Made by a program: the position numbers and the translations under genes. A DNA stretch of 61,583 nucleotides, the filler included, from Theionarchaea archaeon (GTDB lineage: Archaea; Methanobacteriota_B; Thermococci; Methanofastidiosales; SZ-28-30): the NCBI GenBank assembly GCA_018992565.1. It is 2 parts of 2 records of this genome, joined end to end, with 100 filler letters (N's around TTAATTAATTAA, not from the genome) between each part and the next. Parts side by side here need not be neighbours in the genome. Positions count along the whole stretch, not along the records: positions 30,970 to 61,583 come from JACVGW010000024.1; 1 more part is not named here. One strand, given 5' to 3'. This document shows, one piece after another, positions 31,358 to 60,218 of the stretch. The notes beneath the pieces are model-generated. The model made no database searches. It was not told the DNA's origin and worked only from the letters and a program-made list of their open reading frames with translations. Numbering within the stretch: position 1 is the stretch's first letter; each line of letters opens with the position of its first letter.

Positions 31358-32101
31358 ATGACAACAGAACCTGAAGCTGATATTTTAGACTTTCTCCATA
31401 ATGAAGGTATCACCCTTGTAGGAATAGCTGCAGCAGATCATCTTCCATCAGTACCTGATGAATTCTCACCCCATGCTGTACTCAAGGGGGCCCAATCTGT
31501 GATTTGTTACGCAGTACCCATTCCAAAAGGAATCCTCTATGCGGGTCATCATGGTGAAGCTTTGTACTGGCGCTTCTGCAACATGGCATACAGGTCCCTT
31601 GATATCATATCTGGTAGACTTGCTTCATATTTGGAGGAAGAAAACTGTGTTACTGCCCCCGTATATGGATGCTACCCCTGGAAAGTCAGAAATCGTGAGT
31701 TCTGGGGAACCCTCCCTTTAGTGTACTGGGCTGAGAAAGCAGGTATTGGAACACTTACCAAGTGCGGCCTCCTTGCAGCTCCAGAATTTGGCACCAGAAT
31801 TCTGATGGGAGGCGTTATCACAACCAAGAGATTAAACCCAACTGAGAGAATAAGGAAAGAGCTCTGTCCCCCAGGTTGCGTTGAATGCCTGAGAGCGTGC
31901 CCTGTTACTGCAATAAGCGAAACAGGAAAGGTCGACCATAACCTATGTATTCGACATTCACACGAGAACCCGCTGCTCCAGCATCTTCTTCATGACAAAG
32001 CAGAATTCTCATTTGAAACACTGGTGAACACGGTGGGTGTAGATGATCATGGCACATACCTATGTTTCGAGTGCATGAAGGCATGTCCTCTAAACAAATG
32101 A
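31358..32101 (+). CDS. Epoxyqueuosine reductase (QueG)/reductive dehalogenase-like 2x[4Fe-4S] protein
   Basis: AEKAGIG, PEFGTRILMGGVIT, CPPGCVECLRACP, C..CFECMKACP. Confidence 0.8.
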   Translation: MTTEPEADILDFLHNEGITLVGIAAADHLPSVPDEFSPHAVLKGAQSVICYAVPIPKGILYAGHHGEALYWRFCNMAYRSLDIISGRLASYLEEENCVTAPVYGCYPWKVRNREFWGTLPLVYWAEKAGIGTLTKCGLLAAPEFGTRILMGGVITTKRLNPTERIRKELCPPGCVECLRACPVTAISETGKVDHNLCIRHSHENPLLQHLLHDKAEFSFETLVNTVGVDDHGTYLCFECMKACPLNK

Positions 32102-32173
32102 CGCACCTTTTCTTATCGCCAGATTCAGCTATCTTCTTCCATCTGGAGCACAGGATTAATGAAAAGAGAATCT

Positions 32174-33613
32174 TTATTCCTCAATGCCACACAGCTTTTC
32201 TGCAGCTTCCTCTTTCTCTTTCATGGGCACCAACCGCGAAATCATGATCCTCTGGGCCTGGGGAGACCCTGCACCATGCATCGATTCTGTCAGGTATCCC
32301 ACAGCAGCAGACCCCAGAGTAAGGTTTTCAATCAGCCGCAAAATCCGCATCCTGTTCTTGGTTTCAGATACCCCCTTGTAATACTTCTCGAGCCATTTTC
32401 CGATTTCTGGAGACTCAAAATCCTTTTCAGAAGGCATGGTGACCAGTAGCCCTCCTGCAATATCCTGTGCCAGCCGCGCGATCTCATATGGGAATCGTGT
32501 CACGTTTTGCTTGTGGACATTGGCAAGTAGTGAATTTACAGAATATGTACCGCTGGGTTCTCTGCACCCTTCTGCAGCACACGCAATGCAGCCACAATAG
32601 AGAGTATCATTCAGTTGGTTCATTTCAACAATCTTATCCCTAATGTGAGACGCTTTCTCGACTCCATTATACTCTGCAATCTTGTGGGCTGCGCCTATCA
32701 ACACATCCCCCACTCCCACTTTACATGCATAGCTCTGCCGGTGATAGCTCGCAAACTTCTCCACCAGTTCACCAGAAAAATCATATTCCTTGTACATGAA
32801 TACTCTGTCCCAGGGAACAAAGACATCATCAAAGATTATCAGTGCTTCATGTCCACCATACAACAGGTTGCCCTGGTCTCTTCCCCCCTCTATTTTCCGC
32901 ATATCGCAGGATTGACGGCCTATTACATATGTGATATCGTCCGTATCAGAGGGCACGGCAAAAGACACTGCATATTCCTTGTCTTCTTCCTGCAGTGACA
33001 TGGTGGGCATGACAATTATTTCATGGGAGTTCACTGCCCCTGTCTGATGTGCCTTCGCACCTCTCACAATAATACCATCACTTGTTTCCTCCACCACATG
33101 TACATACATATCAGGGTCGGTCTGTCTATGAGGAGGTAGTCCCCTGTCACCTTTAGGATCGGTCATGGCACCGTCGCAGGTTAAATCTTTTTCCTGAACA
33201 TACTTCAAATACTTCAAAAAGCGCTCATTATAATCAGTCCCATGTTTTTTATCAATATCGTAGGTGACAATAGATAATGCATTTAATGCATCCATTCCCA
33301 CACATCTCTGGAAACAACATCCTGTTTCACGGCCCAGCAGCCTCCCCATCTTGCTTTTCTTGACTAAATCTTCAACGTTTTGGTGAATATGGGTAAATCG
33401 ATTTATTCTCTTACCTGTAATATGCGAGGTAGCTACCATGACATCCTCATGTTCCTTGCAGTGGGCAAGTTCGTAGGTTCTGGCGACAGCCTTCATGGAA
33501 GGTCGAATAACAGGATCATCCACTACTGATTCCAACCGCTTTCCAAAGAGATACACCGCAAGGTTCAATTTTCTGAGGCTTTCCTCGTATTGATCTGCAG
33601 TCATCATGGTCAT
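32174..33613 (-). CDS. abfD: 4-hydroxybutyryl-CoA dehydratase (FAD/[4Fe-4S])
   Basis: CFQRCVGMD, GAMTDPKGDR, VRGAKAHQTG, HRQSYACK, ESMHGAGSPQAQR. Confidence 0.88.
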   Translation of the reverse strand: MTMMTADQYEESLRKLNLAVYLFGKRLESVVDDPVIRPSMKAVARTYELAHCKEHEDVMVATSHITGKRINRFTHIHQNVEDLVKKSKMGRLLGRETGCCFQRCVGMDALNALSIVTYDIDKKHGTDYNERFLKYLKYVQEKDLTCDGAMTDPKGDRGLPPHRQTDPDMYVHVVEETSDGIIVRGAKAHQTGAVNSHEIIVMPTMSLQEEDKEYAVSFAVPSDTDDITYVIGRQSCDMRKIEGGRDQGNLLYGGHEALIIFDDVFVPWDRVFMYKEYDFSGELVEKFASYHRQSYACKVGVGDVLIGAAHKIAEYNGVEKASHIRDKIVEMNQLNDTLYCGCIACAAEGCREPSGTYSVNSLLANVHKQNVTRFPYEIARLAQDIAGGLLVTMPSEKDFESPEIGKWLEKYYKGVSETKNRMRILRLIENLTLGSAAVGYLTESMHGAGSPQAQRIMISRLVPMKEKEEAAEKLCGIEE

Positions 33614-33986
33614 ATTTTGCCAGGAACCCTTATACCACTTTCCTCTCATGAAGGGGTGACTACTACTCTTTCCACACTCTACTAAGAAGTGGCTATTACT
33701 GATCTGTGGCTTGAATATGAGCTGATTTCCATGAGGATCATCTCTTCAGCATCCATTCATGATATTCTCGCCACTCTTTGTTGCATTCATTTGATTTTTT
33801 CAAGTCTCTTGTCCCTTTATCATCCCTCACTCCCTTTTTTTTCATCATAGACCACTCAGCTTTTCTTTCTATGTAATAATGTCATTTCAGTCTCTTTGTA
33901 TGACTTCAAGTTCCACACAACATTAGAAAGAATAGAATAATTATGGGCTAGATATTGGCACATCAGATAATTTTCTTGTTAATTAT

Positions 33987-34005
33987 ACCGAAAAACTTAT
34001 AAATA
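33987..34005 (+). promoter_or_regulatory. BRE/TATA promoter of the MoaD-AOR operon
   Basis: ACCGAAAAACTTATAAATA. Confidence 0.7.
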
Positions 34006-34097
34006 TCTTTTGAATTCATGAACAAGGAATCACATACTGAAGTGAATCCACCAAATTCGAGAGTCTCTGCCCTGTCAGAGACTAAAGGAGCGCATGC

Positions 34098-34394
34098 ATG
34101 ACAAACGCTATCATGTCTATTACCCTGGATTTCCCCTTCCCCGCTGTGGGGATTGATGCCCCTAGAAGATCAACCATACAGGTACCCGCAGCCACCATCA
34201 GAGACCTGGTTGAATTGCATATCCTGAAGATTGATGCCAACCTGAGAAAGTACTTTTACAGTGAGACAGGTGAGTGGAGTCCAGTCTTGAGTGTCTTTGT
34301 GAACAAGAGGAACATACTGGATCTCCAAGGCGAGAAAACTTCGCTGAAATCCGGGGACATGGTTATTGTTCTGTTTCCATACGCTGGTGGTTGA
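34098..34394 (+). CDS. MoaD/ThiS/SAMP-family ubiquitin-like protein
   Basis: VFVNKRNI..LQG..T.LKSGD.V..FP..GG with C-terminal di-glycine; AAGGAG RBS. Confidence 0.88.
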   Translation: MTNAIMSITLDFPFPAVGIDAPRRSTIQVPAATIRDLVELHILKIDANLRKYFYSETGEWSPVLSVFVNKRNILDLQGEKTSLKSGDMVIVLFPYAGG

Positions 34395-34428
34395 GATGGG
34401 AACAATGCGTCCACTAAGAGGTGAAAAT

Positions 34429-35184
34429 ATGAATCTTTTCTTGAAAAACAAAAAGAGAGTTCCTGCTTTTCTGGTGACCTCATTGCTCTTGATTTGCTTT
34501 TTTTCACAGCTGTTAGAAGGTCAGGAAAGACCGGAAATCGAATTCCGGAAAAAGGGAGGAATCCTTTTTCGGGAAGTGACCTATGATATTGTGACAACCC
34601 CTCAGGATTCTGTGGAGGTTGAGTTCTCCTTTGCCATTGATAATATTGGCACGGATCCTGTAGAAAGCATATCCTTTGATATTCTCATTCAGACAGGTGA
34701 GCTGGAGAGTGTTGCATTCAGGACAGGAGACCAGACGCTGGACCATGATGAGTCTATCATGGAGGCACATTACCTGTATGATGTATTTTTTGAACAGACG
34801 CTGATGCCCGAGAATTCAACAACGGTACAAGGTAACTATTCTCTCCTGGGCATACTGCAGCAGGACGGAGCAGACATAAAGACCAGAGTCCCACTCTTGG
34901 TTCCCATAGTTGTTGAGGCCAGTGGAAAGACCGAAATTGCCATTGCCATGGAGGGGCCTCTTGGGTTTAAGTGTGCTCAGGCTATTCCCCAGCCTGCATC
35001 AAAAGAGGTCGTGGATGAATGTCCTCACTCTACATGGGAGATGTCCATGATTCCCCCGTCTTTGCTCTTTGTCACATACAAACCTATTGGAACAACCTCA
35101 ATTTCCATCAATACGGTCATTCTCGCTGCAATCATCATCTGGGCAGGCATTGTGGCTGTGTACGGATATCGCAAGCTCAGATAA
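34429..35184 (+). CDS. Secreted/membrane-anchored hypothetical protein (beta-rich ectodomain, C-terminal TM)
   Basis: GAGGTGA RBS; hydrophobic N-terminal segment; C-terminal TM helix plus RKLR. Confidence 0.7.
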   Translation: MNLFLKNKKRVPAFLVTSLLLICFFSQLLEGQERPEIEFRKKGGILFREVTYDIVTTPQDSVEVEFSFAIDNIGTDPVESISFDILIQTGELESVAFRTGDQTLDHDESIMEAHYLYDVFFEQTLMPENSTTVQGNYSLLGILQQDGADIKTRVPLLVPIVVEASGKTEIAIAMEGPLGFKCAQAIPQPASKEVVDECPHSTWEMSMIPPSLLFVTYKPIGTTSISINTVILAAIIIWAGIVAVYGYRKLR

Positions 35185-35203
35185 GGAATAAATTTGAGTT
35201 GGA

Positions 35204-35575
35204 GTGAAAGAGATGTGCGAAAATCAAGATTCCGAGAAAATAAGGTGTGCGCACTTGTTTCTCATACCACAAGCCGCCCCAGAAACTCATCATGCTACTA
35301 TTGAAACCCCGTTGGTCAGAATTGAGGTTTACGGTGTAGACAGTTATGATGCAGGAGAGAAGCTCTCCCGTGACCTTGTTTCTTCAGGGATTGTCATGAT
35401 CGAGCTGTGCGGCTCATGGGGATATGAGGGAGCCTCCCGGATTGTCAAAGCTGTAGGAAATCAGGTTCCAGTCGGCGTTGTCATGCACCAGCAGCACAAC
35501 TGCTTCGGGCTTGCCACTGTGATGCTACAGTCCAAGAATCCGCATAACAGGCTGAATGTGCGCACCCCTACGTGA
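35204..35575 (+). CDS. Hypothetical protein, DUF6506-like
   Basis: GIVMIELCGSWG...IVKAVG.QVPVGVV motif. Confidence 0.65.
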   Translation: MKEMCENQDSEKIRCAHLFLIPQAAPETHHATIETPLVRIEVYGVDSYDAGEKLSRDLVSSGIVMIELCGSWGYEGASRIVKAVGNQVPVGVVMHQQHNCFGLATVMLQSKNPHNRLNVRTPT

Positions 35576-35590
35576 AAGGAGGTATTAACC

Positions 35591-37492
35591 GTGAAAGAAT
35601 CAAGTGAAAGGCCCTTCCAGGGAGGATACATGGGCCATTACCTGGATGTTGACTTGAATACTGAATCGTTCAAGATCAAGCCATTGGATAAAGAAATGGC
35701 TGAAAAATTCGTTGGTGGAAGAGGGTTTACCGCGAAGATAGAGTATGATGAGCTGAAACCCGGAATGGATCCCTTAAGTCCTGAAAATGTGCTGATTTTT
35801 GCTCCTGGACCTCTTACTGGCACAGGAGCTATAGGTGGAAACAGGATGACTGTTGGAGGAAAATCCCCTCTTACAGGTCTTCTGGGAGACTCATCAGTAG
35901 GAGGGAAATTTGCGGTGGACTTGAAAAAAGCAGGATATGACTATGTCATTATTAGAGGCAAGGCCAAGGCTCCTGTGGTCCTAGTGATTGATGATGGCAG
36001 TGTCCAATTCATAGAGGGAACTGAATACTGGGGAACTTCCACGTACGATACCAGTGAAGACCTATATTCCCGATTTGGCAGTGACAGATCGATAGTGGTC
36101 ATAGGCCCTGGAGGGGAGAATCTGGTCAGGTTCGCCTGTGTCATCTCCATAGGCTATAATGAAGCCCCACGCGCAGCAGGTAGAACAGGGATGGGAGCTG
36201 TCATGGGTTCGAAGAACTTGAAAGCTGTTGTTATGCACGGGTCAAACAGGATTCCAGTGGCAGATAAAAAGAGCATGAAAGAAGTCATCAAATTCAATTC
36301 AGGAATTATCAAAGAAGACCTTCAGTATCCCGTGTTCCGTAAGTATGGGACTACCAGATTCATAGGAGTTCTCAACAGAATTGGTTGCCTTGCCACCAGG
36401 AACAGACAAGATCTGGTGTTTGAGCATGCCAAGGATATTGACGGCAGAGCCCTGAGAGAAAAGTACTATGTTCGAGACGAGAAGTGTCCCTACTGTTTCA
36501 TGGACTGCGGAGTGGTAGCTCAGATTCCATCAGGGGAATTCGCCACCCGTGAGGTCAAGATGGAGTTCTTTCCTCTGGCATCCCTGGGCTCCAACTGTGG
36601 AAACAAGAATTTGGAATCGATTGTCAAGGCGAAAGAGCTGTGCGATGCTTACGGCCTGGATATCGGAGAATCAGGTGCTGTCATTGGGTTTGCCATGGAA
36701 TGCTACCAGCGAGGACTTCTTACCAAGGAAGACACGGGCGGCCTTGACCTGCAGTGGGACAACAGTCCTCATGTCATTCCTGAGCTCCTGAAAAAGATTG
36801 CATATCGTGAAGGAGTAGGTGACCTCATGGCATCAGGAGTGCGAGGACTCTCTGAAAAAGTAAAGAACGGATGTGAACGGTTTGCCCTTCAGATCAAGGG
36901 AATGGCAATGGAGGTCATGGACTGTCGTATGAATAGCGTGTACAACTCTCGTCAGAGGGTGGCCAGCAGAGGTGCAGACCACCTGAGAGGGCAGGGAGTA
37001 GGAGCAGACGATCTGGAGAAGAAGCCTCTTCCTGAAGCAATGTCTGGCCTTCTTCTCAACGAGACACACTGTGCATTGTCAAGCATGCTCGGGCTATGCA
37101 ACTTCCCGGATGTCCTGTGGTCTTCTTCTCGTGAAATTACAGACAAGAAAGCCAAAGAAGGTCGAGTGAGAGCCCTGAGTGCAGTCCTTGGTGTCGACAT
37201 GACCTGGGAAGAGCTTTCTAGGAAAGCTATACGAGTGATAAACCTAGAGCGAGCCGTCGTTGTAAGAGAAGGGATAAGGAAAAAAGACGATGAACTTCCC
37301 AAACGATTTCTTGAAGATCCCGTTCCCTCAGGTCCAACCAAAGGACAGGTCTGTATGATCTCCGATGAGTTCATCGATGAATACTATACACAACGCGGAT
37401 GGGATCTTGAGACTGGCATCCCCACTGAGTCCACATTGAAGAACCTGGAACTGGATGAGGCGGCAGCCATGGTTGCCTCCCTTGGGGCGTGA
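35591..37492 (+). CDS. Aldehyde:ferredoxin oxidoreductase (tungsten WOR/AOR) family protein, divergent
   Basis: KSPLTG, IGPGGENLVRFA, AAGRTGMGAVMGSKNLKA, CPYCFMDC, CDAYGLD, RGADHL, YY..RGWD. Confidence 0.92.
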   Translation: MKESSERPFQGGYMGHYLDVDLNTESFKIKPLDKEMAEKFVGGRGFTAKIEYDELKPGMDPLSPENVLIFAPGPLTGTGAIGGNRMTVGGKSPLTGLLGDSSVGGKFAVDLKKAGYDYVIIRGKAKAPVVLVIDDGSVQFIEGTEYWGTSTYDTSEDLYSRFGSDRSIVVIGPGGENLVRFACVISIGYNEAPRAAGRTGMGAVMGSKNLKAVVMHGSNRIPVADKKSMKEVIKFNSGIIKEDLQYPVFRKYGTTRFIGVLNRIGCLATRNRQDLVFEHAKDIDGRALREKYYVRDEKCPYCFMDCGVVAQIPSGEFATREVKMEFFPLASLGSNCGNKNLESIVKAKELCDAYGLDIGESGAVIGFAMECYQRGLLTKEDTGGLDLQWDNSPHVIPELLKKIAYREGVGDLMASGVRGLSEKVKNGCERFALQIKGMAMEVMDCRMNSVYNSRQRVASRGADHLRGQGVGADDLEKKPLPEAMSGLLLNETHCALSSMLGLCNFPDVLWSSSREITDKKAKEGRVRALSAVLGVDMTWEELSRKAIRVINLERAVVVREGIRKKDDELPKRFLEDPVPSGPTKGQVCMISDEFIDEYYTQRGWDLETGIPTESTLKNLELDEAAAMVASLGA

Positions 37493-38342
37493 TACTATTC
37501 CTCGTGTCATTGCTATCAGTGGTGGACGACTCCAAGGAAATACTGATCAATTCTTGCAGAAAGCTCTAGATGTCATAGGAGAATACGATATTGATACAGA
37601 GCTCATACCCCTGGCTGCCCATCACATTGAGATGGATCCCTGCAGCAGGTGCCCTTCCGACTGTACGGTGAGACCTGCAGTCTGTGTTACCCGGGATGAT
37701 TTCAACGGGATTTTCAAGAAGATGCTTGAAGCAGATGGCATAATCTTGGGATCACCTGTGTACTGGGGTTCAGCGCCTGCGAAGCTGAAAGAAGTCCTGA
37801 ATCGTGCAGGAATCCTCAGCGAGGGCCGGGTCTCAGCAGATAAACCCGTGTCCATCCTTGGAAATGCTCATGGATGGCCTGACAACATCAAAGGAAGAGG
37901 CTGGCCTGAGACCACCAAAGCACCCGGGCTCTTTGCGCGAAAGATCGGTGGTGCTGTGTCTGTGGCCCAGAGAGATGGGGTCCTCTTCACCATTTCAGAG
38001 CTCTGTCTGTGGCTTCTCATCAATGATTTTGTCATCTGTTCCTCCAACTACTGGGTGGATGGACTGGAGCAGGTGGGACGCTCAGCTGGAGGCGTGGGAG
38101 GCGGAGGAACCAGGATGCCTTCTAAGAACGGAAAGACTGCTGAGCATGTGAGAGACATCCTCCGGCTTGACAGGGAAGCTGTCTTGACATTGGAGCACTT
38201 TGCCGAGAACTTTGCATGGCTCGTGAATACCACTCACCCTTCGAGAGGTAACCCAGAAGAGATTTTCCGACAGTCCCGGTTATCTGCTCCACCTTGGATG
38301 AGTCCAGAAGATAGAGAACGAGTTCTAGGTGCGAACACTTGA
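37455..38342 (+). CDS. Iron-sulfur flavoprotein / NADPH-dependent FMN reductase (flavodoxin-fold) family
   Basis: VIAISG...GNT, CSRCPSDC..C...DD, ADGIILGSPVYWG; start uncertain. Confidence 0.8.
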   Translation: MRRQPWLPPLGRDTIPRVIAISGGRLQGNTDQFLQKALDVIGEYDIDTELIPLAAHHIEMDPCSRCPSDCTVRPAVCVTRDDFNGIFKKMLEADGIILGSPVYWGSAPAKLKEVLNRAGILSEGRVSADKPVSILGNAHGWPDNIKGRGWPETTKAPGLFARKIGGAVSVAQRDGVLFTISELCLWLLINDFVICSSNYWVDGLEQVGRSAGGVGGGGTRMPSKNGKTAEHVRDILRLDREAVLTLEHFAENFAWLVNTTHPSRGNPEEIFRQSRLSAPPWMSPEDRERVLGANT

Positions 38343-38352
38343 GGTTCTCACC

Positions 38353-38368
38353 TTTTTCATCTTTTTTT
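38353..38368 (+). terminator. Archaeal oligo-T terminator candidate
   Basis: TTTTTCATCTTTTTTT just after the stop at 38342. Confidence 0.5.
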
Positions 38369-38449
38369 CAGTACTGTGAAGCATTCCGACACACCTTCCA
38401 CTAATAGTTCTATCGTATATGACATACTTGTAATAATTGTTATAAGATA

Positions 38450-38467
38450 ATTGACCATTCGGTCAAT
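38450..38467. promoter_or_regulatory. Palindromic operator candidate ATTGACC-N4-GGTCAAT
   Basis: Perfect 7-bp inverted repeat 15 nt upstream of the BRE/TATA at 38483-38499. Confidence 0.55.
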
Positions 38468-38482
38468 AATTCACTATTTTTC

Positions 38483-38499
38483 ACCGAAAAATTTATAAA
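38483..38499 (+). promoter_or_regulatory. BRE/TATA promoter of the symporter unit
   Basis: ACCGAAAAATTTATAAA. Confidence 0.72.
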
Positions 38500-38550
38500 C
38501 ACTCCGGTAAACTAGATCAGAAAAAGGAAGCTTGAGGAGAGTGACAACAT

Positions 38551-38661
38551 ATGACACCACCACAAATGATACTGGTCGAGTATCTCTTGCTATTAATACC
38601 CTGGATAGTTATGGGAATGATGGCCGAGAAGTACATCATCCCAAAATTTGAGGGGTACTAA
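38551..38661 (+). CDS. 36-aa single-TM small protein, probable symporter accessory subunit (not in the ORF track)
   Basis: MTPPQMILVEYLLLLIPWIVMGMMAEKYIIPKFEGY*; GAGGAG RBS; its stop abuts the GGAGGT RBS of the symporter. Confidence 0.7.
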   Translation: MTPPQMILVEYLLLLIPWIVMGMMAEKYIIPKFEGY

Positions 38662-38673
38662 GGAGGTATTGAT

Positions 38674-40221
38674 ATGGACATGCTGTTATTAGGCTTGTTG
38701 ACGGTCTATCTGTTGGTTGTGCTGTACGTGGGATACTGGGGAATGAAACGTTCGAAGACGCTGGAAGACTATGTCCTGGCAGGGAGAAATATTCCCCCTC
38801 TGGTTCTAGCCTTCACCCTTCTGGCTACCTGGTTCAGCGGATGGGCATTCGTGGGAAACCCCGGATATATGTATGCATACGGATTTCCTGCCATGCACTG
38901 GAACCTGTTCCTGGGAGTCGGAATAATGCTTTCTATCGTATTCTTTGCTCTGCCCCTTAGAACTTCCACGGAACGGTTGAAGAGCCTGTCTATCCCAGAC
39001 TGGATTGGAGATCGATATGATTCCAAGCTTGCTCGAGGACTAGTGGCAATTTTGGCAATAATAGTCCTGATCATTTCCATGGTTTCGCAGTACAAAGCTA
39101 TAGCTCTGCTATTCGAACCCTTCCTTGGATTGACATTCCAGCAGACTACCATAATATTCGGCCTCATCGTCGTCTTCTATGCGTGTGTGGGAGGATTGTT
39201 CGCTGTTGCATACACCGACTTTCTGCAGGGTGCCATGATGCTGCCCATTGCTCTTGCCCCCATAATGGCTTTCGTCATGGTGGGCGGGACATCTGGATTC
39301 TTGGACAGCATCGCTGGAAAAGTTGAACCTTACTACACTGGATTTTCCGGAGGACTGAACACCCCGATGTATCTTCTTGCCATTGGACTAGTCTTTCTCT
39401 TGATGCACGTCAGTTCAGTGTACAACTCTGTGAGATTCCTGTTCCTGAAAAAGGAAAAAGGAGGTTTCACAAAGATGCTGTGGTACGTTCTGGCCTTGTA
39501 CTGTGTACTGTGGGTTGCAGGGTTTACCGGCTGGTTTGGAAAGGCAGTCTATCCTGATCTTGCTTCACCTGACCAGATCATGCCGCTGATGATCACCACT
39601 GTGTTCCCGAGAGCTGTGGCCCTGGTATTGACGTTGACCATTCTCGCCGCCGTTATGTCTTCGTCTGATTCGATACTGATGGCCATGGGAACTGCAATGG
39701 GAAGAGATCTATATCAGAAGTGCATTAAACCAGAGGCATCAGAGAAATCTGTCATGCAGCTGACCAGAGTAGCCGTTGTTGTTCTGGGAATTATACCCAT
39801 TATCATGCTACTGTGGAGAACACCTCAGTTCCTGGCCATATTTATGGCGATGGGAACGACTGGGTTAGGAACCGCTATTCTGGCACCAATAATACTTGGC
39901 CTGTACTGGAAGCGAGGAACAAAGTACGGTGCTCTGGCAAGCATCATTCTCGGACCCGCAACGTATGTGGCAGGGATCAAAATTGCAGGCTGGGCGTGGC
40001 CTTATGCGGGAGTGCTGGCCATTGCCCTGGCGACTGTCCTGTACGTGATAGTATCTCTGGTGACTAAACCACCTTCAGAAGAGATTATCACACTGGGCGT
40101 CACTGGCAAAGGAATATCACCTGCCAAAGCACCTGCAAAGAAGGGAAAACCCGCGACTGCGGTAAATTCTCTTGAATGGAAGAGCGTCTACATTAATCTC
40201 TTCGCCAATTCCTCCCCATAG
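38674..40221 (+). CDS. Sodium:solute symporter (PutP/PanF-like SSS family)
   Basis: DYVLAGR, ATWFSGWAFVG.PG, GGLFAVAYTDFLQG, AAVMSSSDS, LGLYWKR; about 13 TM helices. Confidence 0.93.
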   Translation: MDMLLLGLLTVYLLVVLYVGYWGMKRSKTLEDYVLAGRNIPPLVLAFTLLATWFSGWAFVGNPGYMYAYGFPAMHWNLFLGVGIMLSIVFFALPLRTSTERLKSLSIPDWIGDRYDSKLARGLVAILAIIVLIISMVSQYKAIALLFEPFLGLTFQQTTIIFGLIVVFYACVGGLFAVAYTDFLQGAMMLPIALAPIMAFVMVGGTSGFLDSIAGKVEPYYTGFSGGLNTPMYLLAIGLVFLLMHVSSVYNSVRFLFLKKEKGGFTKMLWYVLALYCVLWVAGFTGWFGKAVYPDLASPDQIMPLMITTVFPRAVALVLTLTILAAVMSSSDSILMAMGTAMGRDLYQKCIKPEASEKSVMQLTRVAVVVLGIIPIIMLLWRTPQFLAIFMAMGTTGLGTAILAPIILGLYWKRGTKYGALASIILGPATYVAGIKIAGWAWPYAGVLAIALATVLYVIVSLVTKPPSEEIITLGVTGKGISPAKAPAKKGKPATAVNSLEWKSVYINLFANSSP

Positions 40222-40226
40222 ACACC

Positions 40227-40250
40227 TTTCTTTTTTTCTTTTTTCTTTTT
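40227..40250 (+). terminator. Oligo-T terminator candidate
   Basis: Long T-rich tract directly after the symporter stop. Confidence 0.45.
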
Positions 40251-40274
40251 CTAGAGAGAAAATGAGGGAATAAC

Positions 40275-40841
40275 ATGGAATGTAAAGAAGAAAAAAATAT
40301 TAAGACTTTTGAGCCCACAATCTCCACGCGAGATTCCATCAAGCGAGTTGAAAGAGTGGGGCTCTTCAAGAGACTGACACGGAGGGGAAATTCTGAGCTC
40401 CTCCGGGGTATTGAAAGCAAACTGGTATATTACCCATTCTGGTTTTTCACCTTCGACGTGAGAGTACATCGTGCGTTCCGTCTCCCCGATAAGAAAGTCA
40501 TGATCCCTGTTGCTGTTGATGCAGTAAGTGGAAAGGCCGGCTTCCTTGAAGCAAACCTCGGTGCTCTGGTAGACAAGACAGTAGAGAAACCATATATCAT
40601 TCCCTACACGGTGGAGTACAGCAATGCGGTAAATATTGCAGAGCAGTTCTGCAAATTGTATGTAAACAGGGAGTATCATCCATTTTCTCTCCCGGACTAT
40701 ATTCTCATGGAGTACCAGCTCATACATCCCCCGTATTTTGCAGTGAACAGCACAAATGAGCCTGCAGATCAGCACTTCTTAGTACTGGTCAACGGCATAA
40801 CTGGCTCGGTAGAACAAAAAGAAGAAATCCTCTTGGATTAG
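40275..40841 (+). CDS. Hypothetical protein with internal duplication (LVYYPFW..VDAVSG / LIHPPYF..VNGITG)
   Basis: 188-aa ORF with a GAGGG RBS and two similar motifs. Confidence 0.7.
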   Translation: MECKEEKNIKTFEPTISTRDSIKRVERVGLFKRLTRRGNSELLRGIESKLVYYPFWFFTFDVRVHRAFRLPDKKVMIPVAVDAVSGKAGFLEANLGALVDKTVEKPYIIPYTVEYSNAVNIAEQFCKLYVNREYHPFSLPDYILMEYQLIHPPYFAVNSTNEPADQHFLVLVNGITGSVEQKEEILLD

Positions 40842-40915: not shown

Positions 40916-42973
40916 TCAAGAAAGCATTTGCTCAAGAAGTTCGATAGCCTTCTCGTATAGATCTGCAGCTTCCAGAGCCAGTGTATTCGCTGTAACACAG
41001 TTTCCCCGTGCAAGGTGCTCCGCAGCCTCGGATAAGAGCTGCTCAGCTTTTTCCATCAGTTCTTCAGCCTCAGATACATCAATTCCTTTCTCATTGGCTT
41101 CAGACAGCAGGTCGTGTGCCTTTGCAGATAGCTTCTGGGCCTTGGAGAGGTTGTGCTGAGCAAGTGGAGACATCTGGTTATTTGTCTGAGCGGAAGCAGG
41201 CTCAGTCTCAGTCTCAGTTTCGGATGTGGTGTCTTCTAGGCTGCCGAGCTGTGCATTCAGCGCAAACTGGATGAGAAGTTCTGCATCTTCTTCAGAGATT
41301 TTCTTCCCTCTCTGGGCTTCAACTTCATGAATAAATGCGTTGAGCATGTTTACTGCAGGTGTGATATTCCCTCTGGTGTACTGCATACATGCATTCTCCG
41401 CCTTGGCGGCCAGGCTGTTCCTCAGGCCTTTGTGGAAGTCCAGTGATCTCACCAGATCTGCTAGATCACAGATTCTATCTGTGCATCCGTTCTGGTCAGC
41501 ATCCAGTCCCTGAGGATTCTCCTCGGGACACGAATCCAGCTCATCAGGTATGCCATCTCCATCCGAATCTCCGTTCCCTGAACCCTCTTTTGCAGTGAAG
41601 TATACTTCCCAGTCAGTGCCGTCCCATCCCTGCCACACCACGTATGATTTTCCTGATCCATCTGTGGCAATCTGGGGGCTCCAGTCGTCTCGTGTCTCAT
41701 TCTCTGTATGGATTGAGAGCTTCTCAGCTGTACCGGGGACTCCATCACCATCTATTGGCACCCAGTAGACCTCATCATCTCTACCATCGAATCCTTTCCA
41801 GGTCACAAATGAGTTTCCATCACTGTCTGCCACAATCTGTGGAGTGTAGTCATACTTGGATATCGTGTCCTCGTGCGTAGATATTTTCTGCACATCTCCT
41901 GGCACATCCCCGGAAACTGCAACCCAGTAGATGTCATTATCAGAGCCATCATAGCCCTGCCAGGTGATGTATGAATTCCCCGTTCCATCAGCAGCAATCT
42001 GAGGGTAGTAGTCTGTCCTTGTCTGATTGTCTGAATGGGTTGATACCTTGTATACCTGTCCAGGCGTGCCTGAATGCATGCGCACCCAGAATATTTCATA
42101 GTCCTGACCATCGTGACCCATCCAGGTGACATACGAATCTCCTGACTGATCAGCAGCAATTTGTGGGTACCAGTCATCCCTGCTGATATTATCTTCATGG
42201 ACAGATATCTTTTGCACAGTGCCTGCGTTCTCCAGTGTGTCTATTGATACCCAGTATATCTCGTCATCTGATCCATCATCACCATACCACACGACATATG
42301 AATTCCCTGATCCATCAACAGCGATCTGGGGATTCCAGTCATCGTATGTTTGATTGTCAGGATGGGTAGATATCTTCTGTACAGTGCCCGAAACACCCTG
42401 TGCATCCACCTTGACCCAGTAAATCTCATTATGATACTGGGCTCGACAGCGCCACACGACATATGAATTCCCTGATCCATCAGCAGCGATCTGGGGATCG
42501 AAGTCTTCTCTGTCTACATTGTCAGGATGGGTAGATATCTTCTGTACAGTGCCCGAAACACCCTGTGCATCCACCTTGACCCAGTAAATCTCGTTGTCAT
42601 GTCCATCATAACCTCGCCACACAACGTATGAATTCCCTGACCCGTCTAGTGCAATCTGAGGTCCCCAGTCTTGCATTCCTACGTTGTCAGGATGCGTAGA
42701 GATCATCTGGATCGTACCTGGTATGCCCTCTGCATCCACTTTAACCCAGTAAATCTCCCAGTTGTACCCATCAGACCCATGCCACACTACATAGCAGTTG
42801 CCACTAGAATCTGCAGCGATCTGGGGGTCATAATTCTGCCGGTATGTAACATCTGGATCATATGAAAGCTTCAGCACCTCTTCTGCTCCTACGTTACTGC
42901 AGAAAGAGAATCCTAAGAGAGAACCTACCATTACAAAAGTCACAAGCGCCGCTTTCTCCTTTCTCGGATACAT
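40916..42973 (-). CDS. Secreted protein with eight ~55-aa repeats (beta-propeller), a TSP3-like Ca-binding motif and a helical C-terminus
   Basis: Signal peptide; 8 copies of PQIAxDxSGNSYVxW; DSDGDGIPDELDSCP; GGAGGTGA RBS. Confidence 0.82.
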   Translation of the reverse strand: MYPRKEKAALVTFVMVGSLLGFSFCSNVGAEEVLKLSYDPDVTYRQNYDPQIAADSSGNCYVVWHGSDGYNWEIYWVKVDAEGIPGTIQMISTHPDNVGMQDWGPQIALDGSGNSYVVWRGYDGHDNEIYWVKVDAQGVSGTVQKISTHPDNVDREDFDPQIAADGSGNSYVVWRCRAQYHNEIYWVKVDAQGVSGTVQKISTHPDNQTYDDWNPQIAVDGSGNSYVVWYGDDGSDDEIYWVSIDTLENAGTVQKISVHEDNISRDDWYPQIAADQSGDSYVTWMGHDGQDYEIFWVRMHSGTPGQVYKVSTHSDNQTRTDYYPQIAADGTGNSYITWQGYDGSDNDIYWVAVSGDVPGDVQKISTHEDTISKYDYTPQIVADSDGNSFVTWKGFDGRDDEVYWVPIDGDGVPGTAEKLSIHTENETRDDWSPQIATDGSGKSYVVWQGWDGTDWEVYFTAKEGSGNGDSDGDGIPDELDSCPEENPQGLDADQNGCTDRICDLADLVRSLDFHKGLRNSLAAKAENACMQYTRGNITPAVNMLNAFIHEVEAQRGKKISEEDAELLIQFALNAQLGSLEDTTSETETETEPASAQTNNQMSPLAQHNLSKAQKLSAKAHDLLSEANEKGIDVSEAEELMEKAEQLLSEAAEHLARGNCVTANTLALEAADLYEKAIELLEQMLS
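42353..42592. repeat. Identical 75-bp direct repeat (42353-42427 and 42518-42592; 165-bp period)
   Basis: ATTGTCAGGATGGG...CCCAGTAAATCTC occurs twice, encoding adjacent propeller blades. Confidence 0.9.
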
Positions 42974-43626
42974 TTTTCCTCTTCACCTCCGTTACTCTCT
43001 TGAAGTGTTACTCCCTCAAGCACCTCTACTACTACACACATATACTTAAAGGTTTGGGTTTTAGACCATACTTGGAAAACAATGAGAAAAATAAGCCATT
43101 TACTGATTAAAATGTATTGGTATATTATTCATTATTTTCATCCATTTCTGCTGTGTGAAGGAGAAAAATCAAAGCGAGATGTGAGCTCATGTCCCCAGGA
43201 ATCTTTCTCTAAACAGCTCTTATAGGGCAATTGTCACTTCTCTCCAGAGCGGAGTGAACAAGAACCAGAAAAAGAACCTCCCTGCATTTCCTCTTCCTCG
43301 GGTTTCAAGGAAATACAAGGCGGAGATGAGCCCATATCCAGAGGCTATTGCGTATTTGATTTTCTGTTTCCCCAGTACTTATAAGAGTTGGGTTTGCAGT
43401 ATTTTGTGCAGACTTGGAACTGGGAGCTAAATGCGAGTTTCTGGAATGACTCCCAGGCATGATATTACAATCTCGAGTCAGATGATGCACCACATTAGTG
43501 GCATTTTACCATAAAAAATCAAATCTAGCAATAGTTACTGACATTTTATGTAAGCCTTCCATGTTGCTCGGAATTCTTTCAACATTATATGGAAAGATAT
43601 TTAAATGTGTTGTCCAAGTGATCCTT

Positions 43627-44328
43627 ATGAGAAAAGGACTCTCACCTATCATTGCCACTATACTTCTCATAGCAATAGCTGTTGCTGTGGGTTCGATTGT
43701 TTCCATTTATGTAACAGGTCACGCGTCAGATTATATGAACAAGGAAGGCGAACGGAGGGAACGGATTCTGGACAAGGAGGGAGAATCACTCGAGCTTATT
43801 CATGTAGAATCAGCGGGCGGAAATGTCACGTTGACTGTACAAAACAATGGAACAACAGACGTTGAAGTCACATATGTTACCATAAATGAAACAGACTATA
43901 ATCAACTTTCCCCTACCACCATGATTGATTACGGTGAGTCTCAGGATATCACAGTCGCCTTTGGTAGTACTGTAAATTCACTGGAACTTGGGAGCAGGTT
44001 GGGAAACATTTTTGTGTTTAATGCACCTTCTCCACGAATTGAAATCATCAATTCCTTTTTCAATGCAGATAACAAACTGGTTACCTTTTCTGGTGAAGGA
44101 TCCACAGATGATGGAAGGATTGTCCAGTGGGCCTGGTGTTTCAGGTGGGATGAAGCAACAGACACCTGTCTTGCAGGCTGCGACGGGTCTCCCTCAGCGT
44201 GGGGATATGGAAAAGTAACTAGTTATTCATATATTGGATGTAGTGCAGGAACCTATGCAGTCAAGCTAGTTGTAACAGATGACACAGGGATGACAGGTGA
44301 GGTTCTTGTTTACGTCAATATCCCGTGA
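43627..44328 (+). CDS. Archaeal type IV pilin-like protein with C-terminal PKD-like domain
   Basis: Class III signal peptide MRKG|LSPIIATILLIAIAV; FSGEGSTDDGRIVQWAW...YAVKLVVTDDTG. Confidence 0.85.
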   Translation: MRKGLSPIIATILLIAIAVAVGSIVSIYVTGHASDYMNKEGERRERILDKEGESLELIHVESAGGNVTLTVQNNGTTDVEVTYVTINETDYNQLSPTTMIDYGESQDITVAFGSTVNSLELGSRLGNIFVFNAPSPRIEIINSFFNADNKLVTFSGEGSTDDGRIVQWAWCFRWDEATDTCLAGCDGSPSAWGYGKVTSYSYIGCSAGTYAVKLVVTDDTGMTGEVLVYVNIP

Positions 44329-44340
44329 GGTGAGAAAAGT

Positions 44341-46233
44341 ATGACTTTATCTTGGAAGAAGCTGGTTAGCAGGAAAGGAGTTTCTCCGGTAATTAGCTTT
44401 GTGCTTATCGTAGCCGTATTGTTGTCAGTGTTCTCTTTGCTTTTCATGTGGAACCTCAGTCAGGAAGAACTGAAGACGCAGAGAGAGAGGGAGAGAATCC
44501 AGCAACTGAAACTGGTGGAGGGTGAATCCCTGGCTTATTTGACCATTCCCTCAGACACCAGCGCCTTCACAGTGTACAACAATGGTACGGTAGCTCCTGA
44601 CATACGACACGTGTACGTTGATGGAAGTGAAACAACAGGATTCACTGTCACACAGGATACAGACAATCCAAGGAAGTGGTTAATTTCTACAGGAACCATG
44701 GTATCCTCATCGATAAAAATTGAGACCAGCCTGGGAAATATCTATTCGTATGCGGGGCCTACTGCAGTGATCGACCTGCTGTCCTGGAGTGATCTGGATA
44801 CCAAGGTCATTCTCGTTCTTGACGGGTCAAAATCAAATGCGGTGGGAGCGTCCATTTCCAAGTGGGAATGGACATACACGGATGGTGGATCAGCCAGCGG
44901 GGCCAGAGTCCAGCTTGAACTTGATAAACCGGCAGAAGGGAGCAGTGCTTCTCAGGTAATCATCACGCTCACTGTCACTGACAGTACTGATATTTCAAAT
45001 TCCCCTGCTGTACGTGATGCAACTACTTCCATTACCTTGAGTATTCCTCCTGAAGGAGAGTCCGGGAGTGGGGAAGGAGATCCCGGGTTCGGAGGAGAAG
45101 GTGCTCCTGGTGGTATTTACATTTCATTGGGAGGAACTGGTGGAGGTACATCAGTTGCAGAAGGCCGTGTGATTGCTTTCAATATCAAGAATTTCTCAGG
45201 AAGAATGATACCCTTAACCTCACTGAGATTTTATGGTGTTAAGAATCCTTCAAACTACACGGCAGACGAGGTTTATATTGCACCGCCCGGTCAGGTATTG
45301 ACTGCTGCTGACATGTATTACTCTGGAGCTTCGGTTGGAGACGGGGGCATTGCGCAGTTCACCAAACCGTACTACGTTGGAGATAGAGACGAAGCCCACA
45401 TTGAGTTAAGGGCAAGCAGTGGTGCCAGACCCCAAGAAGGTCACATATTCATGATAATCATGTATGATGCTGCCACTCCTCAGAGTTACTATGTGGTGAC
45501 TGTTCCTATCAGGACTATGGACTACACCGATGACGTTGAATTCAGTGCTGTTGACGTCTTCCATGTCACAGGTAGCGGATATATCCTGCAGGGAAAGTCA
45601 CTGGATCTTAACAACAGGAAATTGATGTCTATTGGGGTAGCTTTTTCCACACCTGCCAATGCAGGTGATCCATGTGATGACAGGATGACTGAATTCAATG
45701 TGGCAGGGATTGCGTACTGGACTGGCTCCATAACGTCTGGAACCACTATTTTTCTGGGAACAGACACTGATGGAGATGGACAGGCTGATACAGGTGTAAC
45801 CTGGGATAATTCCCGGACAGTGCAGTTCGATTTCAACTTCAATGATGTTGCTCAGCGATTCTACTATTTCGTGTACCGGTTTGAAGATGGTACCTCAGTT
45901 GCTCACAAAATTCCTCGATTCACCGTTGCTTTGGCCTCGGGAGAAACAGAACGCAGAGTGGTCGATCCGTCGACGGGTGGATCGGCAAGCTGGTCAATTG
46001 ACATTACTCAGATTGACATTCTCAACACGCCATTGAACTTGAATATCACTGGGCTGCCGTGCTACTGCACTGCATCTTTCAGTCCAGTATCGCCTATGGG
46101 CATGCCCAACGCGGTGACCCTGACAGTAGACATATTGCCTGGCGCCCCTACAGGGCTGTATCCCCTTGTGATAACGGGGAACAACAACAACTGGGCAGAC
46201 TCGGTGGTAGTGTTCCTGTACCTGGGGACATGA
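44341..46233 (+). CDS. Large type IV pilin-like adhesin with PKD/Ig-like domains
   Basis: Class III signal RKG|VSPVISFVLIVAV; LDGSKS..ISKWEW..ITLTVTD; GAGGTGA RBS. Confidence 0.78.
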   Translation: MTLSWKKLVSRKGVSPVISFVLIVAVLLSVFSLLFMWNLSQEELKTQRERERIQQLKLVEGESLAYLTIPSDTSAFTVYNNGTVAPDIRHVYVDGSETTGFTVTQDTDNPRKWLISTGTMVSSSIKIETSLGNIYSYAGPTAVIDLLSWSDLDTKVILVLDGSKSNAVGASISKWEWTYTDGGSASGARVQLELDKPAEGSSASQVIITLTVTDSTDISNSPAVRDATTSITLSIPPEGESGSGEGDPGFGGEGAPGGIYISLGGTGGGTSVAEGRVIAFNIKNFSGRMIPLTSLRFYGVKNPSNYTADEVYIAPPGQVLTAADMYYSGASVGDGGIAQFTKPYYVGDRDEAHIELRASSGARPQEGHIFMIIMYDAATPQSYYVVTVPIRTMDYTDDVEFSAVDVFHVTGSGYILQGKSLDLNNRKLMSIGVAFSTPANAGDPCDDRMTEFNVAGIAYWTGSITSGTTIFLGTDTDGDGQADTGVTWDNSRTVQFDFNFNDVAQRFYYFVYRFEDGTSVAHKIPRFTVALASGETERRVVDPSTGGSASWSIDITQIDILNTPLNLNITGLPCYCTASFSPVSPMGMPNAVTLTVDILPGAPTGLYPLVITGNNNNWADSVVVFLYLGT

Positions 46234-51099: not shown

Positions 51100-51819
51100 T
51101 TACTTGGCAACATATAAGACAATTCCTTTCTCTTTCACGATCTCAAAAGGGATATTCTTCAGCGAATGTGAGGTCCCCCTCATTTTTCTCACGCGCAGGA
51201 ATCGCTTCAAGTCAGAAACCTCTTCTTCCAGAGACAGTACAATAATGCCTCTGGCCAGGAATTCTTCAATACCATATCGTGAGACAAGGAAGGGGTCTAT
51301 ACTCTCCGTGGTCATCAGTGATGTCAGTCCGATTTCAAGAAGCAGTGCACTGAGTCTGAATAGCGCCCCACGAAATTCCTCAGATTCCCCGACTTTCAGC
51401 ATGAGAGCTGGAATTGAATCGAGTACAAGCCTCTTTGCTCCAATTCGAGTAGCAGCACGATGGATGTCCAGGACCAGTGCGTCAATTTCGAAATTGCTCC
51501 CAATGCGAAGCTCACTGCCCTCAGAAGCTCCAATCCGTGGAGAGGCTGCATCAATAATCATGAGGTTTCCATTTCGTTGATGTTCTGCCAGATCCCAGCC
51601 CAGTCCCAGCATTTCATCCTGAAGGTCAGCCGTCCGTTCCTCTAAGGTGATGAAAATACCTGGTTCATTTTTCTCCACGATTCCTTCCTCTAGGAACTGG
51701 GTACAAAAGATGGTCTTTCCCGTGCCTGAACTGCCACATATGAGAACATTGGTTCCCCTTGGGTAACCGCCTCCGATGATAGTATCCAGGCCTGGAATGC
51801 CAGTTGTTACTCTCTCCAC
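51100..51819 (-). CDS. Single-domain KaiC-like/RAD55-family ATPase
   Basis: TGIPGLDTIIGGG, GSSGTGKT, FITLEE, RLVLDS, KMRGT. Confidence 0.92.
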   Translation of the reverse strand: MERVTTGIPGLDTIIGGGYPRGTNVLICGSSGTGKTIFCTQFLEEGIVEKNEPGIFITLEERTADLQDEMLGLGWDLAEHQRNGNLMIIDAASPRIGASEGSELRIGSNFEIDALVLDIHRAATRIGAKRLVLDSIPALMLKVGESEEFRGALFRLSALLLEIGLTSLMTTESIDPFLVSRYGIEEFLARGIIVLSLEEEVSDLKRFLRVRKMRGTSHSLKNIPFEIVKEKGIVLYVAK

Positions 51820-52111
51820 GGCTCCTGTTGTTCTTTACCCTTTATAAGGTTTGACATCAGACAACTTCTCTTTTTCTTTGAATTTAGAATCAAAATATGT
51901 CATATTAAAGAATCAGGGACACATTAGTAGAGAATCAAAGGAATGTCTGGTGTTTCTGATCCTGGAGTTATCAGCGTGATACAGTGGTGCAGTCTCAGAG
52001 ACGGAAGAGTGTCAATTGCATCTCTCTTTCGTGGACCAGAATTCTCTGGTGAGCCTCTAACCCAACTTGAGGGGGGAAAGCTATTTATAATCTTCTCAGG
52101 AAGAGAAGGAC

Positions 52112-60118: not shown

Positions 60119-60218
60119 NNNNNNNNNNNNNNNNNNNNNNNNNNNNNNNNNNNNNNNNNNNNNNNNNNNNNNNNNNNNNNNNNNNNNNNNNNNNNNNNNN
60201 NNNNNNNNNNNNNNNNNN
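60119..60218. other. Assembly gap (100 N)
   Basis: Run of N; the flanks belong to unrelated genes on opposite strands. Confidence 0.95.

Follow-up and report, generated by a model that had tools for sequence, protein, structure and literature searches.

What do the eight co-oriented genes at positions 34098 to 40841 of the stretch of DNA analyzed here do for their host? The stretch, which we call the window, is 61,583 nucleotides long and comes from a metagenome-assembled genome (MAG) of a Theionarchaea archaeon (GCA_018992565.1), an uncultured inhabitant of sediment. The genes lie in two units, and the first of these contains a divergent member of the AOR/WOR family of pyranopterin enzymes. 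The original prediction, made from the DNA alone, described them as a dedicated uptake-and-oxidation pathway for a small solute. Part of that proposal holds, in that the two units are co-conserved and the enzyme belongs to an uncharacterized clade; the oxidation itself is not secure, and neither a specific co-regulation of the units through their promoters nor a place of the MoaD-like gene in the core is supported. The reading we favor, at somewhat less than an even chance, is that of a conserved and expressed two-unit module in which the symporter of the second unit would import a solute for conversion by a non-canonical WOR catalytic subunit (WorL), with an iron-sulfur flavoprotein as its dedicated partner.

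The window consists of three contigs of one MAG (88% complete; genome of 2.8 Mb) joined by runs of N at two places, 30870 and about 60130-60218 (188 N in total, of which 30870 is the first position and 60218 the final one). The whole cluster lies on one contig, G000:C80, and genes to the left of 30870 have no physical linkage to it. A comparison of G+C content between cluster and genome (0.478 versus 0.467) gives no sign of foreign origin. All eight predicted open reading frames (ORFs) were found on the + strand. Unit 1 encodes a ThiS/MoaD-like protein, a two-anchor membrane protein, a DUF6506 protein, the AOR/WOR-family enzyme, and an FMN_red flavoprotein; unit 2 encodes a 36-residue membrane peptide, an SSS symporter, and a 188-residue orphan, here called hyp188. 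The features of the two units are as follows.

33987..34003, + strand: promoter of unit 1, the BRE/TATA 17-mer ACCGAAAAACTTATAAA, 94 nucleotides 5' of the ThiS-like start.
34098..34394, + strand: ThiS/MoaD-fold protein with a Gly-Gly end, a "WorX"-type accessory (PF02597, 24.8 bits).
34396..35184, + strand: membrane-anchored protein, no Pfam family; candidate starts at 34366 (TTG), 34396, and 34429 (ATG).
35213..35575, + strand: DUF6506 protein with the IELCG Cys (PF20116, 87.5 bits); the ORF is also readable from 35204.
35591..37492, + strand: AOR/WOR-family catalytic subunit (WorL) with AFOR_N and AFOR_C domains, pyranopterin and [4Fe-4S].
37455..38342, + strand: FMN_red flavoprotein (E 1.4e-18) with C63/C66/C70/C77 and a long insertion, proposed electron-transfer partner.
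38483..38499, + strand: promoter of unit 2, the BRE/TATA 17-mer ACCGAAAAATTTATAAA; RNA contigs begin about 25 nucleotides downstream.
38551..38661, + strand: 36-residue single-helix membrane peptide, a probable symporter small subunit.
38674..40221, + strand: SSS-family sodium:solute symporter (PF00474, TIGR00813).
40227..40252, + strand: T-rich tract 3' of the symporter stop, a probable terminator by its sequence and by the RNA contig ends at 40200-40223.
40275..40841, + strand: hyp188, a soluble protein of 188 residues, no Pfam family, conserved 3' of the symporter.

The AOR protein carries both domains of its family, AFOR_N (PF02730, 252.5 bits against a cut-off of 29.8, E 3.7e-75) and AFOR_C (PF01314, 345 bits against 27, E 7.9e-103). 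Its best sequence matches in the PDB are to AOR-type enzymes and FOR, at near-equal scores (339-352 bits, E 1e-100 to 1e-104), with 349 bits to 1aor and 280 bits to 8c0z; WOR83 (235 bits), WOR5 (224 bits), and BamB (183 bits), compared by score only, lie lower. A quick tree was built from 67 rows: the window protein, 12 close matches, 37 sampled further matches, 8 paralogues from its own genome, and 9 Pyrococcus-type paralogues from two genomes. There, the window protein falls in a clade of 29 rows, made up of uncharacterized metagenome proteins, with SH-aLRT support of 100. In a more careful tree of 44 rows, made after removal of 23 (near-duplicates, the rows of the second Pyrococcus-type genome, and four of the window genome's own paralogues that had long branches), the clade comprises 21 rows with support of 100/100. 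It is separate from the AOR rows (1145 bits to 1aor), the FOR rows (1276 bits to 1b25), and a GAPOR-like pair; two other Pyrococcus-type paralogues in the trees have no solved orthologue. The earlier suggestion of an AOR in an uncharacterized clade is thus borne out, as the protein sits outside AOR sensu stricto, FOR, and the GAPOR-like pair and inside no clade of a characterized enzyme.

The active site also differs from that of the Pyrococcus furiosus AOR (1aor). The four ligands of the [4Fe-4S] cluster are kept (C299, C302, C306, and C503, corresponding to Cys288, Cys291, Cys295, and Cys494 in P. furiosus AOR numbering) and are invariant in 13 clade members. Also kept are T254 (Thr243), E325 (Glu311), and H464 (His448). 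Four other positions are replaced: Tyr312 by F326, Glu313 by F327, Tyr427 by M443, and Tyr452 by Q468. Glu313 is absent from all 29 clade rows, which have Phe, Tyr, or Ser instead, versus 6 of the 38 rows outside the clade. As described in PMC12096430, Glu313, His448, and Tyr427 are universally conserved in known AORs, where they have acid-base roles, and Glu313, His448, Tyr312, and Tyr452 form a proposed proton relay. From the second-shell set of aldehyde-oxidizing AORs (Thr243/Glu313/Tyr427/His448), the window protein has lost Glu313 and Tyr427. Because these two residues and most of the proton relay are replaced, the reaction is probably not ordinary aldehyde oxidation, and the oxidation named in the original prediction is not secure.

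One could still argue that this is an ordinary single-subunit (Class I) aldehyde oxidoreductase, which would work with ferredoxin to detoxify aldehydes or to ferment amino acids, and that its neighbors are unrelated passengers. It retains both Pfam domains as well as the cluster Cys, Thr243, and His448, the best PDB matches are AOR and FOR, and the genome holds about 10 AOR-family genes, which is typical of peptide fermenters. Moreover, a ThiS-like WorX gene next to WorL is the published picture of Class I in PMC13328260. Against this stand the replacement of Glu313, Tyr427, Tyr312, and Tyr452, the first of them lost in 29 of 29 clade members, and the full support with which the clade separates from AOR and FOR. 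Further, as described below, seven of the genes form one block in a different organism, between other flanks, and a flavoprotein gene follows the AOR gene both in a relative of 48% identity and in a paralogous cluster. We therefore regard the ordinary-enzyme explanation as unlikely.

How does the cluster compare with described systems? The 2026 classification of the family (PMC13328260) divides it into classes I-V by WorL, WorS, WorN, WorABC, and membrane subunits; of the 92 WOR clades that it counts, only five have been assigned a role in physiology, and its section 11 names only one WOR with non-aldehyde activity. The window cluster is like Class I in its two-domain WorL, the [4Fe-4S] Cys, Thr243, Glu311, and His448, and a ThiS-like gene in the operon. 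It is unlike Class I in that its AOR belongs to a separate clade with the Phe/Phe/Met/Gln replacements, and in that it has a conserved four-Cys FMN_red gene, a DUF6506 gene, a membrane protein gene, and a symporter unit. An adjacent WorS polyferredoxin gene, which together with WorN or WorABC marks Classes II, III, and IV, is absent from the cluster. In the Class III enzyme AorABC (Aromatoleum aromaticum, 8C0Z), WorL gives electrons to a flavin subunit and not to free ferredoxin alone (PMC13328260, section 10), an arrangement that is only proposed here. AorABC, however, depends on WorS, a polyferredoxin, and on an FAD subunit from a different family, whereas the window has no WorS gene and a flavoprotein of FMN_red type, and 8c0z groups with AOR sensu stricto, unlike the window AOR. 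By its main text, the 2026 classification has no class with an FMN_red partner, and the words FMN, flavodoxin, iron-sulfur flavoprotein, and symporter are absent from that main text; its supplements list the neighborhoods of 4,064 WorL and could hold the window clade. A further comparison is with BamB, of the class II benzoyl-CoA reductase (4Z3W), a WOR-family protein of non-aldehyde chemistry with a largely hydrophobic pocket above the metal (PMC12096430). BamB is a distant relative (183 bits, in two stretches), and no BamC-I-type genes lie at the cluster. It is nevertheless a precedent, and on its strength the Phe/Phe/Met-lined site may be read as a sign of non-aldehyde chemistry.

The second element of the reading is the flavoprotein. 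It matches FMN_red (67.4 bits), and its 295 residues include a C-terminal extension and a conserved insertion that reads SEGR...GWP...TK.PGLF. Its C-x2-C-x3-C-x6-C motif (C63, C66, C70, and C77) is invariant in five of five homologues and may be of the iron-sulfur flavoprotein (Isf) kind. With other members of the FMN_red family such as the flavone reductase FLR (7D38), the protein shares the FMN_red fold, and its N-terminal 100 residues align to FLR; the compact four-Cys motif, which follows the second strand, would be a resemblance to Isf. The protein differs in its length, insertion, and extension, and in that it adjoins AOR-family genes in every locus read (window, L094, L095, C42, and G001). 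Among 133 genomes of the class, only two encode a relative that matches over the full length.

In three of these loci the flavoprotein gene lies directly 3' of the AOR gene: in the window, in the metagenome contig L094 (flavoprotein 76% identical), and in L095 (44%). L095, in which the AOR is 48% identical, has the order TctB-TctA-TctC, AOR, FMN_red, SDR. The same stretch (L095:2524-11527) also holds an enolase-superfamily (MR_MLE) gene, which together with the SDR gene hints at acid-sugar or hydroxy-acid metabolism there; its reading frames look interrupted, with an AOR ORF of 567 residues and a flavoprotein match split in two. The window genome itself has a paralogous cluster on contig C42 (L175, G000:C42:1-11698), which is bracketed by two FMN_red copies and runs FMN_red, saccharopine-dehydrogenase-like, polyferredoxin (Fer4), AOR, ThiS-like, FMN_red, LUD, ABC transporter (SBP_bac_8), MFS, FMN_red. 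Its AOR has Ala at the Glu313 position and Arg at the Thr243 position, and the cluster is kept at 82-96% identity in a genome of the same genus, G001 (L248, G001:C5:3700-16300). Beside more distant AORs (at most 41% identity; L013 and L014), a Fer4 polyferredoxin gene adjoins the AOR gene instead. The window cluster lacks such a gene, as the original prediction had noted for ferredoxins: no Fer4-type ORF lies between 33650 and 40900, and the nearest Fer4 protein is a QueG/reductive-dehalogenase-like one beyond the divergent HpaB-family gene described at the end.

Could the flavoprotein itself be the substrate-converting enzyme? The search found a single relative with a solved structure, FLR/Cd1 (7d38; E 1.6e-9, residues 17-119), which is described as an ene-reductase (PMC7862272). 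By analogy, the flavoprotein might reduce the substrate, with the AOR only feeding it low-potential electrons from an aldehyde/acid couple, and the long conserved insertion and C-terminal extension, which simple electron transfer would not need, fit such a role. The match to FLR, however, is to the generic FMN_red N terminus only, the four-Cys motif suggests that the protein holds a cluster fit for relaying electrons, and the clade-wide remodeling of the AOR active site would be left unexplained. We consider an ene-reductase role very unlikely.

Conservation of the cluster as a whole was examined in other genomes. L094, which comes from another organism (G+C 0.41 versus 0.47 in the window genome), keeps seven of the eight genes in the same order, the ThiS-like gene being the one missing. 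Identities there are 71% for the AOR, 76% for the flavoprotein, 80% for the SSS symporter, 64% for DUF6506, 46% for the membrane protein, and 43% for hyp188, and 25 of 35 residues of the 36-residue peptide, at the same place, are identical. The flanks differ, the cluster being preceded by an ABC-2 transporter and followed by an OYE/Pyr_redox_2 gene, and neither a ThiS gene nor abfD was found at the L094 cluster, in which the membrane protein homologue is the first gene of its unit. A second contig, L093, is 98.9% identical to L094, so that the two represent one population. In a third MAG, homologues of the AOR (85% identical) and of DUF6506 (80%) lie on the same 13,564-nucleotide contig under protein accessions that follow one another, and further AOR, DUF6506, and hyp188 homologues are linked indirectly, as four pairs, by the equal lengths of their longest contigs (8598, 10839, 83477, and 8228 nucleotides). 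In a large collection of proteins, seven other AORs are 70-87% identical to that of the window, and identity then drops to 50%. Close orthologues of the AOR, DUF6506, and SSS proteins were found in none of 40 relatives, two of the same genus included; the best matches there are 41% for the AOR and 33% for the symporter, DUF6506 exceeds its cut-off in none, and an alignment-based AOR scan of genome contigs gave at most 41% identity. The co-conservation expected of a dedicated system is found in L094, seven genes staying together within different flanks. These seven are the conserved core; the ThiS-like (MoaD-like) gene, absent from L094, is an accessory and does not belong among the defining members of the cluster.

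The symporter is a clear SSS protein (PF00474, 185.6 bits against 22.8; TIGR00813, 202.9 against 184) that falls below the equivalog cut-offs of PutP (205.6 against 515.5), PanF (182.6 against 328), and ActP (60.5 against 1099), PutP being the best sub-threshold model. The 36-residue peptide before it has no Pfam family match and is probably a small subunit of the symporter, an arrangement that may be of the PanF/YhdT type. The resemblance to PanF/YhdT-type symporters lies in a short one-helix ORF directly 5' of the SSS gene; the differences are that the peptide lacks a Pfam match and that the transporter is below the PutP and PanF cut-offs. Unrelated small hydrophobic ORFs precede SSS genes in six of nine loci of relatives. 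SSS genes also adjoin other AOR paralogues, at G036:C1:28252-30932 (L187, a Pyrococcus-type genome) and at G004:C3:38009-42054 (L006, another genome of the order). Three different uptake systems, namely SSS, TctABC, and ABC with MFS, lie beside pairs of a Glu313-less AOR and an FMN_red protein, which points to a link between these pairs and imported small organic solutes.

Do the units share control as well as location? The original prediction drew attention to their near-identical promoters, and the motif is real: the 16-mer CCGAAAAANTTATAAA occurs in the whole window, at up to two mismatches, only at 33988 and 38484, where 0.09 occurrences would be expected by chance and none of 100 shuffles reached two matches. 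It does not follow that the units are specifically co-regulated. Across the genome, the promoter 17-mer has 15 sites (4 exact and 11 with one mismatch; none for a reversed control), all of them 12-165 nucleotides upstream of a correctly oriented ORF by a lenient rule (the first ORF of at least 30 residues within 250 nucleotides). Ten of the proteins behind these sites were scanned, two of which had no family. Exact copies precede an archaeal histone gene and, in the paralogous AOR cluster, the gene for the solute-binding protein; copies with one mismatch precede genes for the thermosome, two proteases (clostripain and subtilase), a very large surface protein, and a paralogous-cluster FMN_red protein. 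The same strong BRE/TATA thus stands at the histone (G000:C138:31385-31703, L215) and thermosome (G000:C86:13040-14725, L213) loci. Because of these 15 sites, the sharing of the 17-mer carries no regulon meaning, and a private regulon is rejected. The 17-mer is the strong consensus BRE/TATA of this organism, and such a generic promoter would argue for high expression of both units.

Two other elements near the promoters deserve mention. A perfect inverted repeat, TTGACC ATTC GGTCAA, lies at 38452-38467, about 17 nucleotides 5' of the unit 2 BRE/TATA; it is a possible operator, and none was seen at unit 1. In L094, the two upstream regions share a 33-nucleotide match (score 35, versus a maximum of 33 in 100 shuffles), in which L094:6654-6686 and L094:11059-11090 have TTGCTCAATTAAATAA in common, followed by a TATA-like stretch. 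This element differs from the window motif and might be bound by a regulator; its presence at both places hints, weakly, that the two units are controlled together.

The cluster appears to be transcribed, being present in RNA libraries with transcript-like boundaries, and it is widespread. A 7-kb stretch covering it is found at a word share of 0.99-1.00 in 15 DNA runs from six studies (marine, estuary, mangrove, and soil-labeled samples), and four RNA libraries contain parts of it. The contigs from the RNA libraries are identical to the window and lie on six of the eight genes, in both units. For unit 2, two runs of one study gave symporter contigs at 38524-40218 and 38526-40223 with a depth of about 23, and a third run, from another study, gave pieces spanning 38537 to 40200; the 36-residue peptide is covered only through the long symporter contigs. 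These contigs begin about 25 nucleotides 3' of the predicted TATA box and stop at the T-tract, the latter being a weak hint only, as the search tool also skips that repeat. For unit 1, the contigs are short, with depths of 2.4-7, and lie on the ThiS-like (34171-34390), membrane protein (34944-35161), DUF6506 (35244-35571), AOR (36186-36468, 36365-36702, 37010-37175, and 37194-37356), and flavoprotein (37806-37978) genes. None was found on hyp188 or on 33900-34133, which does not show silence there.

These data bear on a further alternative, that the units are independent, with an AOR-flavoprotein redox module followed by chance by a general importer, for example of proline type or for monocarboxylates. 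Each unit has its own consensus promoter, of a generic kind, with a T-tract after the symporter; the unit 2 contigs have their own boundaries and higher depth; the pair of small peptide and SSS gene stands alone in six of nine loci of relatives; and the full linkage was read in one other population only. On the other side, the two units are absent together from the 40 relatives and present together in L094 despite its different flanks and G+C content, where their upstream regions share a match that scores above all 100 shuffles. In addition, Glu313-less AOR and FMN_red pairs adjoin TctABC in L095 and ABC and MFS genes in C42, and SSS genes adjoin other AOR paralogues in G036 and G004. On balance, we consider independence of the units doubtful.

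The remaining proteins of the cluster add less. The ThiS-like protein scores just above the PF02597 cut-off of 22.5, ends in ...YAGG, and is below the NCBIfam cut-offs of MoaD_arch (26.4 against 49.5 bits) and SAMP1 (21.2 against 60 bits); it is 49% identical to the ThiS-like protein of the C42 cluster. Going by the main text of PMC13328260, it would correspond to the accessory WorX, with a presumed role in processing of the pterin cofactor. The second protein, a "surface protein" in the original prediction, is encoded by a real ORF and is better called a membrane-anchored protein without known family: it has hydrophobic segments at residues 22-40 and 236-254, Pfam at E values up to 10 returned only chance-level rows, and the Atlas search only unnamed clusters. 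For hyp188, there was no Pfam match, and the only matches of its Atlas model were to clusters without a name and to portions of HerA-like and Mrr_cat-bearing ones; a model made here from a 6-row alignment has a pLDDT of 36. PADLOC returned nothing for four proteins, hyp188 included.

The DUF6506 protein is well above its gathering score (87.5 bits against 27), its homologues start at the Met of 35213, and no residue other than the IELCG Cys is invariant across 50 sequences of the family, in agreement with the motif first noted. A profile search of 1.84 billion representatives gave 388 matches at E<=0.001, 55 of them at E<=1e-10, and many matches are tandem doubles of about 200 residues. Examples of other architectures are P0136, P0137, P0155, P0165, and P0216, which include tandem doubles (about 220 residues), one four-repeat (364 residues), and fusions; the fusion partners (a methyltransferase, an alpha/beta hydrolase, fragments) are not informative on role. 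Among the six-frame ORFs of 174 loci, the DUF6506 hidden Markov model matched only the window genome and L093/L094. In 172 loci centered on an AOR gene, a DUF6506 gene adjoins it only in the window genome and one related population, to which the MAG with consecutive accessions adds one more case. The role of partner that the original prediction gave to DUF6506 is putative. The predicted structure has a pLDDT of 92, and its fold matches are at background level (Z of 7.0 for binding-protein lobes, 6.9 for hydantoin racemase, 6.2 for AMDase, 6.2 for allantoin racemase, and 6.1 for maleate isomerase). Alignment by hhalign against 13 proteins of the Asp/Glu-racemase family gave a probability of 13%, with the Cys one column off the racemase Cys. 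Foldseek against the PDB gave no match at E<=0.001, a profile search against PDB sequences returned only designed TIM barrels, and no paper naming the family was found in the literature searched. On these models, a half-racemase is a lead only.

If the two units do work together, the pathway could run as follows. The small-subunit symporter would import the substrate or a precursor, most likely a small organic acid. At the Phe/Phe/Met-lined site, the WorL enzyme, with W or Mo as the probable metal, would carry out a conversion other than aldehyde oxidation, possibly a reductive one, of a hydrophobic or unsaturated acid. The flavoprotein would contact WorL and take the place of the ferredoxin or polyferredoxin WorS of known WORs, electrons passing between the WorL cluster, the flavoprotein's own cluster, and its FMN. 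WorX would act in processing of the pterin cofactor, and DUF6506, a small alpha/beta protein, might be a dimeric isomerase or carrier that depends on its thiol. A bolder version, which we think quite unlikely, is that the Glu313-less clade is a second non-aldehyde WOR branch after BamB, in which a W/Mo enzyme with a hydrophobic site reduces or otherwise converts an imported unsaturated or aromatic acid, the dedicated [4Fe-4S]/FMN flavoprotein is a sixth class of WOR subunit, and DUF6506 is a minimal dimeric two-thiol isomerase or racemase acting on the same substrate.

Several points weigh against even the more cautious two-unit module. First, DNA that shows both units conserved together comes from a single other population, where the linkage of the symporter unit could reflect shared ancestry or transfer en bloc. 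Second, the units have separate promoters with a probable terminator between them, the motif they share is generic, and their RNA depths differ (about 23 versus 2-7), contig depth being a poor measure. The expression evidence consists of assembled contigs, and RNA libraries can hold DNA. Third, C42 has a polyferredoxin as well as flavoproteins, so the flavoprotein need not replace WorS. FMN_red/Isf-type proteins can also act alone, for instance in oxidant removal, and the match to the FLR ene-reductase covers only about 100 N-terminal residues. Fourth, loss of Glu313 alone would be no proof of lost aldehyde activity. Finally, neither WtpA nor ModA was found in the 88%-complete MAG, where the search gave two PBP_like_2 genes.

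Even so, among the WOR clades the cluster is a tangible test case, one that is expressed and occurs widely in the environment. It unites a remodeled active site with a proposed flavoprotein partner that the published classes, as given in the main text of PMC13328260, do not include, and with a linked importer that narrows the search for a substrate. It would also give DUF6506, with its 388 representatives in 1.84 billion proteins, a first functional context.

The surroundings of the cluster are of other kinds. On its left side lies the following divergent neighbor.

32174-33649, - strand: protein with HpaB_N and HpaB_C domains (Pfam).

This gene may be abfD, as the original prediction named it. 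The divergent arrangement is present as first described; it is not kept beside the cluster in L094. More broadly, the stretch 31358-33649 holds a QueG/reductive-dehalogenase-like Fer4 protein gene (+) and the HpaB/AbfD-family gene (-), neither of which lies beside the cluster in L094. After the cluster, a run of surface-type genes occupies 40916-47921, encoding a 685-residue protein of SBBP/PDIAV repeats that carries a FIMAH domain (-), a protein with a PKD domain and a hydrophobic segment at its N terminus, a 630-residue orphan, and an FG-GAP repeat protein. Farther along, at 51100-54526, a gene for a KaiC-family ATPase adjoins one for a PAS-GAF-GAF-DUF835 sensor protein.

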